This document shows, piece after piece, positions 52,651-55,246 of a stretch of DNA of 64,000 nucleotides. Numbering within the stretch: position 1 is the stretch's first letter; every line of letters begins with the position of its first letter. Source of the DNA: Escherichia coli (lineage in GTDB: Bacteria; Pseudomonadota; Gammaproteobacteria; Enterobacterales; Enterobacteriaceae); assembly GCF_044324875.1 (NCBI RefSeq), contig NZ_CP172185.1. One strand, given 5' to 3'. The position numbers were made by a program, and so were the translations under genes. Below the pieces are notes generated by a model. The model saw nothing but the letters and a program-made list of their open reading frames with translations, searched no databases and was not told the origin of the DNA.

Positions 52651-52700
52651 TTTATTTTTGCGAGGCGTTTTTCAGATATGAAGTAACAGTTGCAGTTATT
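52651..52700 (+). repeat. intergenic repeat motif, copy 1 (tttatttttgcgaggcgtttttcagat ... acagttgcagttatt)
   Basis: One of three copies of a ~27 bp core; copies 1 and 2 also share a downstream acagttgcagttatt block. Confidence 0.55.
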
Positions 52701-52786
52701 ATAAGTTCAAGTAAAACAGCCTCGTATTAATTCCAGAATAAGGGCATCTGGCTTTTTATTTAATATTCAAGAATGAAAAGTTTTTG

Positions 52787-52999
52787 TCATTCCTTATGCT
52801 CATGACACTCATCATCAACACCTGCTACCTCATCCCTTTGCCTACCGCCTTTTACCTTACGCACCGGAAATTGCTGCCGCTCCAGATATTGCTCCACCGC
52901 TTCGCGTAAAATTGCAGATCGTGAAACCTTACGCCAGCCCCGAAGCTTGTTCAGCCGTTTAATTGCCTCGTCTGATAAATGAAGAAAAACCGTACTCAT
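52787..52999 (-). CDS. small ribbon-helix-helix (CopG-like) protein, yiiE/yiiF family
   Basis: ORF 52787-53035; MSTVFLHLSDEAIKRLNKLRGWRKVSRSAILREAVEQYLERQ from the internal ATG; which of yiiE or yiiF it is cannot be decided from memory. Confidence 0.65.
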   Translation of the reverse strand: MSTVFLHLSDEAIKRLNKLRGWRKVSRSAILREAVEQYLERQQFPVRKVKGGRQRDEVAGVDDECHEHKE

Positions 53000-53094
53000 C
53001 ACCATCGCCACCCCCTCACATATATCTCTCGTCAATGCATGGTGCGAAAATTACGCCGAAAATTTAATTAATAAAAGCTGATTTTTGCATCTTG

Positions 53095-53146
53095 TTTTAT
53101 TTTTGCGAGACGTTTTCCAGAAATAATGCAACAGTTGCAGTTATTT
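53095..53146 (+). repeat. intergenic repeat motif, copy 2
   Basis: ttttatttttgcgagacgttttccagaaat ... caacagttgcagttatt; lies between the divergent yiiE/F-like gene and the 156-aa ORF. Confidence 0.55.
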
Positions 53147-53253
53147 CAATTAATATTAAAAAACGGTTCAGCTATCATCCGGGATGATTTACTATTCTTC
53201 ATCAGGTGCTGGCGCACCCACAGGAAAGAAACGATAAACAATAAGGATGAGTT

Positions 53254-53724
53254 ATGGATGCTGATAATATATTATATTCAGGAATGTTTATTTTTTTGAT
53301 CGGTTTTGCATGGATCTTCGGTTGCATCATCCGCATGGTGTACCCGAAAAAAGTCAGCGTCTTTACCGCTCCAGGCTTTAGCGGCGCTGTTACCCTGCCA
53401 AAAGCAGGTGACTATGCGGTGACAATTACACTCCCGCTCAAAAGCGGTATTGCGTCATATCTCCCTGGCGCGAGCTTTTATTCAGCACAGTTTACCATTA
53501 CCGCCTCTGAGAGCCAGCAAGCAATAGCACTACAACGTAAAGGAAAGTGGGGAGCTAATTCTTATAACAAGGATTTTATCGGTAATAAAAGCCATATTAT
53601 TGGGGTATTTAATTGCCCTCAAGCCACGGAGAATTACGACATAGTTTGCACTAATCCACAGATTATTCACGACACCTATAAAGTGGAAATCATAAACTAT
53701 ATCTCTCTCTCGGAAAAAGAATGA
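53254..53724 (+). CDS. hypothetical membrane-anchored protein (156 aa)
   Basis: SD aaggatgag; one N-terminal hydrophobic helix (MFIFLIGFAWIFGCII) then a ~120-aa Ser/Thr/Ala-rich domain; AT-rich. Confidence 0.55.
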   Translation: MDADNILYSGMFIFLIGFAWIFGCIIRMVYPKKVSVFTAPGFSGAVTLPKAGDYAVTITLPLKSGIASYLPGASFYSAQFTITASESQQAIALQRKGKWGANSYNKDFIGNKSHIIGVFNCPQATENYDIVCTNPQIIHDTYKVEIINYISLSEKE

Positions 53725-53832
53725 TGCAAACCATCCCCGGTTGGATCCTTGTTTTTATTGCGGTGGGGTTAATTATTATTCCGCAAGTAAGTTAATGGCA
53801 GAGATTACTGCACTGCATCCATCGCAGACCGG

Positions 53833-54141
53833 TCAGTGCTGCCACCAACCGGTCTTTACTTGGTAGTAGTAGTAATTTTGCGGATAACAGTCCGGGAACC
53901 AGACAATTCCTTGTGGATCATCCCCCTTCATCACCCGATAGCATTGGCGTCGATCATCGGCGCGGCGACGAAGAGTAGTATAAAGCCGTTTCCACTCATG
54001 ATCGCCCGGTGTACTGTAGTTTACCCAACACTCCATTGAAGGGTGACGCCATTTACCTGTCAGTGTTGGGATCCCTGAATGATTATGCAGCTTCGCTTTA
54101 CCATTACGATCCCTATCTTTACGCGTATTAAGCGTGGACAT
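53833..54141 (-). CDS. hypothetical protein (102 aa, Trp/Tyr/Cys-rich)
   Basis: Good SD (aggag) 8 nt upstream of the ATG at 54141; no recognisable family. Confidence 0.45.
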   Translation of the reverse strand: MSTLNTRKDRDRNGKAKLHNHSGIPTLTGKWRHPSMECWVNYSTPGDHEWKRLYTTLRRRADDRRQCYRVMKGDDPQGIVWFPDCYPQNYYYYQVKTGWWQH

Positions 54142-54202
54142 TTTTAGTCTCCTGTTAAGAGTTCTAAAAATGTGCTTCCTTAAAATAGTTCATCATTTTC
54201 CC

Positions 54203-54415
54203 TTAATTCGCATAGCGTGCTTTTGCTCGAATTTCCGATACGCGGGGACCATTATGATAGCGTCGATGCCCACACATCCAACAAGAACAAATACAGGGAG
54301 TACGAAAGCAAATACCTGATGCTTTTTTGCTTCCATCGCCTGCAGTGCGATAACGGCAGCGGATTTTTTTTAATCGCGCCATATGATGGCGACGTTCAGC
54401 ACGATTACGGGTCAT
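54203..54415 (-). CDS. hypothetical small basic Cys-rich protein (70 aa)
   Basis: ATG at 54415 preceded by an aggag SD lying inside the hairpin repeat; Cys-rich C..C.C.C....C.H cluster; uncertain (+ strand ORFs overlap). Confidence 0.35.
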   Translation of the reverse strand: MTRNRAERRHHMARLKKIRCRYRTAGDGSKKASGICFRTPCICSCWMCGHRRYHNGPRVSEIRAKARYAN

Positions 54416-54420
54416 AGTAA

Positions 54421-54525
54421 AACTCCTGAGCAGGCGGCACTATGCCGCTTTCATAGGAGTTCTGAATGCTGGTGCTTTCTGTATGGCATAACCATGCCTC
54501 TAACGGTTAAGTGCCTGCAGCACAT
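54421..54525. repeat. ~105 bp hairpin-containing repeat, copy A (overlaps the 3' end of the higA-like gene)
   Basis: ~90% identical to copy B at 56238-56342; contains an imperfect long hairpin. Confidence 0.6.
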
Positions 54526-54790
54526 GTTGCGGATCATTGGCAATCGCTCGCAGCAAAGCCTTTGCAGGCCCAGTCGGTGAACGTCGCCCCTGCTCCCAGT
54601 TACGCAACGTGTCTACGCTTACGGAAATAAGTTCGGCAAATTTAGATTGTGACAACCCTGAAGCGCGGCGTATTTCTTTGATTTTCATAGCATCAACTTC
54701 AAAAGTCCGTGAAGGGTGTCGCGTTCCTTCAATAATTTCATTCATCTGGGCCATGCTGTGAGTCAACCGCTCAAAAAGTGCCTTATCCAT
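54500..54790 (-). CDS. XRE-family HTH antitoxin (HigA-like)
   Basis: 96 aa; C-terminal HTH (IRRASGLSQSKFAELISVSVDTLRNWEQGRRSP); start codon abuts the upstream toxin stop. Confidence 0.75.
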   Translation of the reverse strand: MDKALFERLTHSMAQMNEIIEGTRHPSRTFEVDAMKIKEIRRASGLSQSKFAELISVSVDTLRNWEQGRRSPTGPAKALLRAIANDPQHVLQALNR

Positions 54791-55102
54791 TTACCACCTC
54801 GTATTTAACAACCGGAGCATTGATTTTTCCTGGGGAGACAGATCATCTTTAATACCCTTACGATAAATAAGCAGTAATCTGATCTCATAATGTTTAACCT
54901 GATGAAAGTAAATAACCCTGACACCAGCACGTTTCCCCTTTCCTCCTGACACCCATCGAACCTTTCTTAACCCACCAGTTTCAGGTATTACCTCACCATA
55001 GTCAGGATTCAAGGCCAGGAAAAACTGAAAACGACTGAATTCATCGTCGGTCAGCAGTTTTTGAACATCTTCAGTAAAAATTTCCGTTTCGATGAAGAGC
55101 AT
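54791..55102 (-). CDS. RelE/HigB-family toxin-like protein
   Basis: 103 aa; toxin-first gene order with the adjacent HTH antitoxin; basic C-terminal half. Confidence 0.7.
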   Translation of the reverse strand: MLFIETEIFTEDVQKLLTDDEFSRFQFFLALNPDYGEVIPETGGLRKVRWVSGGKGKRAGVRVIYFHQVKHYEIRLLLIYRKGIKDDLSPQEKSMLRLLNTRW

Positions 55103-55219
55103 AATTATACGCCATTGGCTTAGAGTAACAATCCTTTTTGTACGTCATTGACGTACCCTTGAAACCACTAGCTTACTGATAGTGCTCCAGCAAAACCACG
55201 TCTCTGCCGGGTTTGTCTT

Positions 55220-55246
55220 TACATTTGCGAGGCGCTTTCCAGATTT
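55220..55246 (+). repeat. intergenic repeat motif, copy 3
   Basis: tacatttgcgaggcgctttccagattt, ~75 bp upstream of the hydrolase start. Confidence 0.45.

Follow-up and report, generated by a model that had tools for sequence, protein, structure and literature searches.

We conclude, from the sequence, that the three copies of a 27-nt motif in the 64-kb stretch of Escherichia coli DNA analysed here (the window) are probably CRP-S sites of the E. coli type, that is, asymmetric 22-bp sites at which cAMP-CRP would bind productively only with its co-activator Sxy (TfoX). The most likely reading is that of an ordinary regulatory site through which Sxy would control three targets: a toxin–antitoxin pair, a hydrolase inducible by DNA damage and a small gene resembling a repressor. 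A shared cis-regulatory site or promoter family had already been proposed in an earlier note on this DNA, and the general idea is supported by the match to the CRP-S consensus (PMC6728893). We infer that the three copies depend on both Sxy and CRP, and likewise infer the binding of CRP and Sxy, the promoter served by each site and the transcription start sites.

The motif and its match to the CRP-S consensus

Scanned against the 64 kb, the degenerate 27-mer occurs on the plus strand at 52653-52679 and 53098-53124 without mismatch and at 55220-55246 with one mismatch; beyond these three copies, there is none at three mismatches or fewer. The same pattern has no match in 100 dinucleotide-preserving shuffles, and the chance expectation is none. 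Scan and shuffles confirm the three same-strand copies described in the earlier note, whose start for copy 3 (55220) was also right, but whose starts for copies 1 and 2 were 2-3 nt too low. The core of the copies reads TTTTGCGA-GRCGYT-TTCCA-GA.

Table 1. Candidate CRP-S sites and neighbouring features, in coordinates of the window
Feature	Position	Strand	Details
Paralogous 94-nt block around copy 1	52623..52716	+	Includes ACAGTTGCAGTTATT; 76% identity to 53068-53161; yiiF-type 5' region
Copy 1, CRP-S-type site (22 bp)	52656..52677	+	TTTTGCGAGGCGTTTTTCAGAT; TGCGA half at 52659-63; second half TTTCA
yiiE-like ribbon-helix-helix gene	52787..53011	-	Pfam RHH_1; start codon GTG 53011 or ATG 53005
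Paralogous 94-nt block around copy 2	53068..53161	+	yiiE 5' region; 76% identity to 52623-52716
Copy 2, CRP-S-type site (22 bp)	53101..53122	+	TTTTGCGAGACGTTTTCCAGAA; TGCGA at 53104-08, TTCCA at 53115-19
156-aa ORF	53254..53724	+	No Pfam match
Toxin–antitoxin operon, toxin gene first	54500..55102	-	RelE/HigB-like toxin 54791-55102; Xre-HTH antitoxin 54500-54790
Proximal toxin–antitoxin promoter and palindrome	55104..55156	-	TTGTTA-16-TATAAT (55131 to 55104)
Copy 3, CRP-S-type site (22 bp)	55223..55244	+	ATTTGCGAGGCGCTTTCCAGAT; TGCGA at 55226-30, TTCCA at 55237-41
Hydrolase core promoter	55292..55314	+	-10 TATAAA (55292-97), then LexA box CTGTACATTCATACAG (55299-55314)
Alpha/beta hydrolase gene	55331..56239	+	Abhydrolase_3 esterase

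PMC6728893 cites, from Sinha et al. 2009, an E. coli CRP-S motif of 5'-T4G5C6G7A8-6N-T15T16C17C18A19-3' and describes such sites as non-palindromic, orientation-independent and located at class-I-like distances. Copies 2 and 3 match all 10 bases of this consensus and copy 1 matches nine, with TTTCA in place of TTCCA. In all three, TGCGA with C6 follows a T-rich flank (TTTTGCGA or ATTTGCGA), the T1T2T3 of which agrees with the half-site in PMC1635313, and the second half-site, corresponding to T15T16C17C18A19, follows at exactly 6 bp. The exact pattern TGCGA-N6-TTCCA is found twice in the window versus 0.14 times in shuffles. With one mismatch allowed, however, the 10-base core alone would give about six matches per 64 kb by chance and is weak by itself; it is thus the extended match, together with the phylogenetic footprint and the settings in which the site is found, that carries the case for CRP-S.

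A parallel is found in K-12, where the sulA-sxy spacer carries ATTTGCGAGGCTCTTTCCGAA, with the halves TGCGA and TTCCG; PMC6728893 names precisely this pair of half-sites for the CRP-S site of sxy. Its core, TGCGAGGCTCTTTCCG, is identical to that of copy 3, TGCGAGGCGCTTTCCA, at 14 of 16 bases. Related sequences are present upstream of the K-12 genes yifB/comM (TTTTGCGAGCATCATTCCACC), ppdD (ATTTGCGAGGCGTT...), chpS (TTTTGCGAGACGACTCGCATT) and higB (...GATTCCAGA), all genes reported to be CRP-S-regulated or Sxy-induced; the sequences themselves were picked by scanning and are not mapped sites. A full-text literature search for the literal motif sequence gave no match.

Distribution and conservation

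The earlier note held beforehand that a motif frequent genome-wide without positional bias would speak against its proposals. The motif is not dispersed genome-wide: a 66-nt query around copy 2 has matches in 5413 of 5426 E. coli genomes, at a median of two places per genome and a maximum of four. Scanning 100,044 species genomes with the exact pattern yielded about 22 loci in Enterobacterales, of which about 20 are genuine intergenic sites of Enterobacteriaceae. The intergenic contexts of these sites are unrelated to one another, either orientation with respect to genes occurs, and some of the sites are upstream of three unrelated toxin–antitoxin families and of LexA-box promoters. The core appears invariant in this set, which is an ascertainment effect because the set was found with the exact pattern. 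The hydrolase orthologues used for the footprint were sampled by protein and not by motif. In 10 of 12 genera, the site is located at -105 to -108 from the hydrolase ATG, and its position there is constant irrespective of the left neighbour, which can be a toxin-first RelE/HTH pair or an RHH+PIN pair or be absent.

Conservation extends beyond the bases contacted by CRP, to G9, C13 and T14 in the spacer and to G20 and A21 in the flank. As CRP is not known to read these bases, another factor could be involved. They are also an argument for a site that binds CRP alone, or another DNA-binding protein of Enterobacteriaceae, independently of Sxy, the likeness to CRP-S being only partial. Many CRP sites in RegulonDB do have C6 in one half-site, with Sxy dependence unknown (PMC1635313). 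Against this, exactly such an asymmetric pair of half-sites is reported to make a site Sxy-dependent: activity does not need Sxy when both halves are TGCGA and is absent when both are weak (PMC6728893). In addition, the sulA-sxy spacer site, which has the halves of the validated Sxy-dependent sxy site, has the same spacer and flank. We give Sxy-independent binding a small chance of being correct.

Genes around the three copies

The earlier note located a yiiE/F-like ribbon-helix-helix (RHH) gene between copies 1 and 2 and a shared block, ACAGTTGCAGTTATT, downstream of both. The gene is indeed there, and the block proves to be part of the 94-nt paralogous stretch (Table 1). Judged by its sequence, this pair of blocks is a remnant of a yiiE/yiiF tandem duplication. 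This event would have copied an RHH antitoxin gene along with its 5' region, giving rise to yiiE and yiiF and hence to copy 1, which we suggest is what remains, slightly decayed, of the yiiF promoter region. In this genome yiiF, the gene that copy 1 precedes in K-12, has been deleted, which leaves copy 1 an orphan. In Citrobacter, Lelliottia and Enterobacter, relatives of the yiiE-like protein are paired, as the antitoxin, with a PIN-domain toxin. A literature search for links between yiiE or yiiF and sigma-54, RpoN, Sxy or CRP found nothing relevant.

Copies 2 and 3 had been described as lying 75-110 bp upstream of plus-strand genes. This is correct for copy 3, which ends 85 nt before the hydrolase ATG, but not for copy 2, which ends 130 nt before the ATG of the 156-aa ORF. 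The description also missed a set of minus-strand genes that have the copies about 100-130 bp upstream of them. For copies 2 and 3, respectively, these are yiiE and the toxin gene (at 55102); for copy 1, the gene is yiiF, present in K-12 but deleted here. Because these genes also begin some 100-130 bp away, copies 2 and 3 are situated in divergent intergenic regions, copy 2 between the yiiE-like gene (minus strand) and the 156-aa ORF (plus strand), and copy 3 between the toxin–antitoxin operon (minus strand) and the hydrolase gene (plus strand).

Distances from the candidate sites to transcription starts, the latter being predicted only, range from about -48 to -105 across contexts. A predicted sigma-70-like promoter of the 156-aa ORF (TTAATA-17-TATCAT, 53150-53178) would place the centre of copy 2 near -73.5, and the centre of copy 3 lies near -70.5 relative to the predicted hydrolase start; both predicted distances fall within the class-I range. 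The arrangement of -10 element and LexA box in the hydrolase promoter is kept in 12 genera. On the other side of copy 3, the proximal toxin–antitoxin promoter ends 1 nt before the toxin ATG, and directly upstream of it is a perfect palindrome, GTACGTCA-T-TGACGTAC (55140-55156), which is likely the antitoxin operator. The annotated E. coli counterpart of the Xre-HTH antitoxin is named ‘NadS family’, and the toxin-first gene order is also found at the corresponding position in Salmonella.

Alternative explanations

The earlier note raised, among other ideas, an operator for the RHH protein. In this explanation the motif would bind YiiE and YiiF, which would regulate their own genes and control the neighbouring modules. 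In K-12 as well as in the window, RHH genes do have copies 1 and 2 some 105 bp upstream of them, and an RHH gene adjoins the site in Citrobacter, Lelliottia, Superficieibacter and Enterobacter. RHH operators usually have repeat symmetry, however, and in the sequence of the motif we find neither inverted nor tandem repeats. Antitoxin operators are typically promoter-proximal, and a site some 105 bp from the RHH start codon is far from such a position. Moreover, hydrolase promoters that no RHH gene adjoins (Salmonella, E. hormaechei, Leclercia, Phytobacter) still have the site in its conserved position, it is found upstream of unrelated toxin–antitoxin operons, and closely related sites are located upstream of K-12 sxy, yifB/comM and ppdD. 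We consider it quite unlikely that the motif is an RHH operator.

The copies are direct repeats that bracket gene modules, and in several genera the motif accompanies small accessory modules inserted between core genes, as might be expected of a recombination site, the end of a mobile element or, as the earlier note put it, a module-boundary scar, with direct repeats flanking inserted cassettes. The insertion sites themselves argue otherwise. The empty K-12 sites (cybC-nrdG and ilvA-ilvY) have no motif; in both occupied contexts it is 75-100 bp inside the insert, away from the junction, and the opposite end of the insert has no further copy. No recombinase is associated with the motif, and its distance to the hydrolase start codon is fixed across genera, as for a promoter element. 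We therefore discard an attB site or cassette junction and regard any origin as a scar as very unlikely.

A sigma-54 (-24/-12) promoter on the minus strand, CTGGAAAACGCCTCGCA, pointing to yiiE, yiiF and the toxin gene, would have the GG-N10-GC spacing of TGGCAC-N5-TTGCA and the right orientation towards the minus-strand genes for all three window copies, but it is scarcely credible and was rejected. Outside GG/GC, four of 12 consensus bases mismatch (C at -14; A at -20, -21 and -23), and copy 1 (TGA), E. hormaechei (TTGAA) and C. koseri (CGTA) have lost GG or GC with the rest of the motif kept. In the cybC and ilvA contexts, such a promoter would be directed at a convergent core gene, into its 3' end, and no yiiE/yiiF site is present in the K-12 sigma-54 ChIP-seq tables (PMC4591121) or the RpoN genomic SELEX tables (PMC8743547).

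Several other candidates were also rejected. The match to the Rfam small RNA STnc560 (18.7 bits against a threshold of 55) is a chance match, and STnc560 maps to the ydeI/ydeE region in Salmonella, which is not a homologous locus. The R/Y positions of the motif are synonymous in one frame on each strand, but there is no consistent ORF, start or stop across the motif contexts that would point to coding sequence or a small ORF. A sigma-70 promoter with TTGCGA as its -35 element lacks a conserved -10 element, and the motif has no stable stem that could form a hairpin or terminator. Compared by eye, the consensus sequences of the MarA/SoxS/Rob marbox, PurR, Cra, the MetJ metbox, SdiA, PhoP, IHF and Lrp are poor fits.

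Proposed mechanism

Taking the copies as CRP-S sites, we propose that each would consist of T-T-T-TGCGA, a CRP half-site in which C replaces T at position 6, and, after a further six bases, TTCCA, the second half specific to the species. Under high cAMP and with Sxy accumulated, a CRP-Sxy complex would occupy the site and, acting as at class-I promoters, recruit RNA polymerase to weak promoters some 60-75 bp off. As it works in either orientation, the site could act on either side: copy 3 would serve the LexA-repressed hydrolase and/or the toxin-first toxin–antitoxin operon, and copy 2 would serve yiiE and/or the 156-aa ORF.

If this is true, the Sxy regulon would gain the little-understood genes yiiE and yiiF, the toxin–antitoxin pair (which Salmonella has in the corresponding position) and an SOS-box esterase that is widely conserved. 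The recurrent association of CRP-S sites with toxin–antitoxin promoters and LexA boxes would offer testable promoters for the combination of competence-type, starvation and DNA-damage signals, and the strongly conserved spacer bases would give a handle on whether Sxy contacts DNA. Otherwise the motif would be an ordinary instance of a described regulatory motif, a kind of site already known to which these loci are added. A far broader proposal, which we make tentatively and consider doubtful, is that the Sxy regulon of Enterobacteriaceae extends far beyond DNA-uptake genes. Mobile modules would bring their own CRP-S site (three unrelated toxin–antitoxin families), promoters combining CRP-S with a LexA box (those of sulA-sxy, of the conserved hydrolase and of a 146-aa gene beside infA) would fire only when SOS and Sxy/cAMP coincide, and G9, C13-T14 and G20-A21 would mark the contact between Sxy and DNA.

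Comparison with known systems

The sites resemble the E. coli-type CRP-S site (Cameron & Redfield 2006, Sinha et al. 2009, Sondberg et al. 2019) in their length of 22 bp, T-rich flank, TGCGA with C6, G9, 6-bp spacer and TTCCA. They are likewise asymmetric, occur in both orientations and are intergenic at class-I-like distances from predicted starts. They differ in that the candidate genes here are not DNA-uptake genes (RHH antitoxin-like genes, a toxin-first pair and a LexA-box hydrolase), and copy 1, whose second half carries a mismatch, lacks a gene downstream. With the canonical CRP site (CRP-N, TGTGA-N6-TCACA) they share the 22-bp length, the half-site register and the contacts T4, G5, G7, A8, C18 and A19, but they have C6 for T6, the second half TTCCA without C16, and G9. 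The features that separate CRP-S from CRP-N make CRP binding weak and Sxy-dependent (PMC6728893, PMC1635313).

In hicAB of E. coli, a distal CRP-S promoter, P1, is combined with a proximal, antitoxin-repressed P2; Sxy overexpression induces higBA, chpSB and hokD, and toxTA of Haemophilus influenzae is CRP-S controlled (PMC11951105, PMC6957337). Like hicAB and toxTA, the operon at copy 3 is toxin-first. It has a proximal sigma-70 promoter with a palindromic operator, whose predicted transcript starts at or after the toxin start codon, and the candidate CRP-S site is further upstream, at about 130 bp. Its toxin and antitoxin families are nevertheless unrelated to HicAB and, unlike the site in either system, copy 3 may instead, or also, serve the divergent hydrolase gene. 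For the latter, a parallel is the K-12 sulA-sxy region, where a divergent intergenic region has a CRP-S site beside a LexA-box promoter. The LexA boxes are near-identical (CTGTACATCCATACAG in sulA and CTGTACATTCATACAG at the hydrolase). In the literature, the CRP-S site is assigned to sxy and not to sulA, and the spacing from site to LexA box is about 23 nt shorter in sulA than at the hydrolase promoter.

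Three copies of the motif and their surroundings

A degenerate-pattern search found exactly three copies of the 27-bp motif in the window, all in the same orientation as the earlier note had reported, with no further matches in the 64 kb when up to three mismatches were allowed and none in 100 dinucleotide-preserving shuffles. The downstream block noted as common to copies 1 and 2 (ACAGTTGCAGTTATT) is also real, and belongs to a 94-nt stretch present as two paralogous blocks (76% identity), one around each copy; copy 3 has only about 27 nt in common with them.

Features of the island (window coordinates)
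Feature	Position	Strand	Remark
IS3-family orfA	51160-51690		Pfam HTH_28/rve
IS3-family orfB	51795-52517		Pfam HTH_28/rve
yiiF deletion	52517-52650		K-12 yiiE/yiiF region (L002) 7650-8010
Paralogous block	52623-52716; 53068-53161
Copy 1, 27-mer	52653-52679	+	degenerate-pattern search
Tandem hexamer CAGTTG-CAGTTA	52683-52697; 53128-53142
yiiE-like RHH gene	between copies 1 and 2	-	Pfam RHH_1
Copy 2, 27-mer	53098-53124	+	degenerate-pattern search
156-aa ORF promoter	53150-53178		predicted
156-aa ORF, two small ORFs	downstream of copy 2
98-nt direct repeat	54421-54518; 56238-56335		overlaps antitoxin gene 3' end; follows hydrolase stop codon
Xre-HTH antitoxin gene	54500-54790	-	toxin-first operon
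RelE/HigB-like toxin gene	54791-55102	-	toxin-first operon
Proximal toxin-antitoxin promoter	55131 to 55104	-	TTGTTA-16-TATAAT; ends 1 nt before toxin ATG
Copy 3, 27-mer	55220-55246	+	degenerate-pattern search
Hydrolase -10	55292-55297
LexA box CTGTACATTCATACAG	55299-55314		perfect; overlaps predicted hydrolase start
Abhydrolase_3 esterase (hydrolase) gene	55331-56239	+	after copy 3
617-aa ORF	56411-58261	-	no Pfam family

The window shares 92-94% identity with the E. coli fdhE-yiiF-yiiE-...-fabY region, and in K-12 the motif, as its reverse complement, precedes both yiiE and yiiF by about 105 bp. The window has a clean deletion of yiiF, and the IS3-family element abuts REP-like sequence that in K-12 comes after yiiF, so copy 1 has been orphaned. 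All three copies lie both in 5' regions of minus-strand genes and upstream of genes on the plus strand. The K-12 fabY-yiiE spacer (L002 6850-6950) retains a terminator hairpin, pieces of the 156-aa ORF and, of the 617-aa ORF, only the first ~30 codons; K-12 thus carries a heavily deleted remnant of the island. The 98-nt repeat (88% identity between copies) starts with a perfect 19-bp hairpin and may be a terminator-bearing mini-repeat; of 5426 E. coli genomes, 3369 carry it, in one to three copies each. Elsewhere (C. koseri, C. freundii, Lelliottia and Enterobacter sp.; L048, L049, L051, L035) a PIN-domain (VapC-like) toxin gene comes after a YiiF-like RHH gene; judged from these pairs, yiiE and yiiF of E. 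coli appear to be orphan antitoxin genes that have lost their partner toxin.

Distribution

The genome-wide frequency check proposed in the earlier note was run, and the motif is not frequent: a 66-nt query around copy 2 matched 5413 of 5426 complete E. coli genomes, at a median of two and a maximum of four places per genome. The element is locus-specific and not a dispersed repeat. The exact pattern TTTGCGAGRCGYTTTYCAGA occurs at 38 loci in 100,044 species (one genome per species), about 22 of them in Enterobacterales, and its invariance among these loci is an ascertainment effect. Once an apparently coding match in Ewingella and two contaminant contigs are removed, about 20 genuine Enterobacteriaceae intergenic sites remain; the other loci belong to unrelated phyla and are mostly GC-rich sequence of coding appearance. 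The two contigs, labelled Robinsoniella sp. (L022) and Bacillus coahuilensis (L024), are short, match the E. coli yiiF/yiiE region almost letter for letter and appear to be E. coli contaminants of those public assemblies. The Enterobacteriaceae contexts are mutually unrelated.

Contexts of the motif (+ denotes the TTTGCGAG-to-CCAGA direction)
Context	Taxa	Layout
B	Escherichia	cybC, hairpin, 75 nt, motif, TATAAT with GTAATGCAT operator repeats, relB/relE-like pair, nrdG
C	Salmonella/E. albertii/E. whittamii	ilvA, ~75 nt, motif, palindrome TGTATAAAATTTTATACA, Gp49/HigB-like toxin and HTH_37 antitoxin, ilvY
D	Enterobacter/Lelliottia	clpA ... motif, 18 nt, LexA box, 146-aa gene, infA
E	Kosakonia	PTS EIIC gene, motif, yfhM-like lipoprotein gene
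F and L036		solo motif copies
H (fdhE-fabY locus)	many genera	toxin-antitoxin pair (type varies) or none, motif, LexA box, hydrolase

Conservation upstream of the hydrolase

Sampling hydrolase orthologues by protein, fetching their loci and aligning the upstream regions sidesteps the exact-pattern bias. In 10 of 12 genera the motif lies at a fixed position, -105 to -108 from the hydrolase ATG; a -10 (TATAAC/A) and a LexA box CTGTATATnCATACAG are conserved along with it, but not the intervening sequence. The motif is absent only in Klebsiella indica (region deleted) and Trabulsiella (gene relocated). Among the seven sequences sampled by protein, site positions 1, 5, 10, 11, 12, 18 and 22 carry substitutions, and T2-T4, C6, G7, A8, G9, C13-C17 and A19-A21 are invariant. 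The motif is kept with a toxin-first RelE/HTH pair at left (Salmonella, C. amalonaticus, the window), with an RHH+PIN pair (C. koseri, C. freundii, Lelliottia, Enterobacter sp.) and with nothing at all (E. hormaechei, Leclercia, Phytobacter). This last retention indicates that the site serves at least the hydrolase. The hydrolase LexA box is conserved in 12 Enterobacteriaceae genera (including L047-L054, L019, L031, L034 and L035) and is nearly identical to that of sulA, which suggests that the esterase is probably an SOS gene.

Probable assignment as a CRP-S-type site

The motif reads T-T-T-TGCGA-GRCGYT-TTCCA-G-A. The E. coli CRP-S motif (Sinha et al. 2009), as quoted in Sondberg et al. 2019 (PMC6728893), is 5'-T4G5C6G7A8-6N-T15T16C17C18A19-3'; against this quoted consensus copies 2 and 3 match at 10/10 positions and copy 1 at 9/10. 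The half-site T1T2T3T4G5C6G7A8 was described by Cameron & Redfield 2006 (PMC1635313). The K-12 sulA-sxy spacer contains ATTTGCGAGGCTCTTTCCGAA, with halves TGCGA/TTCCG, exactly those named for the sxy site (PMC6728893). Upstream of K-12 genes reported as CRP-S-regulated or Sxy-induced, our best-scoring matches were TTTTGCGAGCATCATTCCACC (yifB/comM), ATTTGCGAGGCGTT... (ppdD), TTTTGCGAGACGACTCGCATT (chpS) and ...GATTCCAGA (higB); unlike the sxy site, these are candidate sites picked by our own scan. CRP-S sites are asymmetric, Sxy dependence requires both unlike halves, it does not matter which way the site faces the promoter, and activation is class I-like (PMC6728893). Toxin-antitoxin precedents are hicAB P1, the Sxy-induced higBA, chpSB and hokD, and H. 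influenzae toxTA (PMC11951105, PMC6957337). The motif has in common with published sites its asymmetry, its use in both orientations and its association with toxin-antitoxin operons. In Kosakonia (L008, L030, L037, L038, L040) a canonical-looking CRP site, TGTGATCGCTGTAACA, lies ~30 bp from the CRP-S-type site, so both types appear side by side in the EIIC/yfhM-like spacer.

That CRP alone, or another factor, reads the conserved spacer seems to us improbable. The earlier note had offered a promoter family or a shared operator, perhaps for the RHH protein. The idea of a shared cis-regulatory site is supported, but an operator for YiiE/YiiF is very unlikely, since the motif lacks symmetry, occurs where there is no RHH gene and also precedes competence-gene homologues; the tandem hexamer in the block that only copies 1 and 2 share is a better candidate for such an operator than the 27-mer. 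The note's module-boundary scar is less credible still: the empty K-12 counterparts of contexts B and C lack the motif, which in occupied sites lies 75-100 bp inside the inserted DNA, and it is therefore neither attachment site nor junction scar. A sigma-54 promoter is hardly tenable, for although the GG/GC spacing fits, agreement with the consensus is poor, the ChIP-seq and SELEX tables for K-12 (PMC4591121, PMC8743547) list no yiiE/yiiF site, GG or GC is broken in three otherwise conserved copies, and such a promoter would point the wrong way in contexts B and C. A match to the sRNA STnc560 in Rfam was due to chance.

Promoter layout

For the CRP-S-type site, the centre of copy 3 (55233.5) lies near -70.5, judged from the hydrolase -10 and overlapping LexA box, and that of copy 2 (53111.5) near -73.5, judged from the 156-aa ORF promoter; with starts so predicted, both are within the class-I range. 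The distance from site to start codon is likewise constant on the other side, about 103-108 bp for RHH genes and about 131-135 bp for RelE-type toxin genes, so each site may serve either side. The proximal toxin-antitoxin promoter is immediately preceded by a perfect palindrome, GTACGTCA-T-TGACGTAC (the two together at 55104-55156, minus strand). As this promoter ends so close to the toxin ATG, the transcript it yields may fail to encode full-length toxin, whose mRNA would need a distal CRP-S-driven P1. It resembles P2 of hicAB and toxTA, which is antitoxin-repressed and yields a transcript unable to make toxin (PMC11951105, PMC6957337).

Relation to known sites

This kind of site is already known. 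A literature search on the motif sequence, yiiE/yiiF and Sxy/CRP, with the Sinha 2009 gene lists outside its scope, found no mention of the island sites and no report of Enterobacteriaceae-wide CRP-S sites carried by mobile toxin-antitoxin modules or of an Enterobacteriaceae-wide CRP-S and LexA-box pairing pattern. The CRP-S-type site is paired here with a LexA box, as it is at K-12 sulA-sxy.
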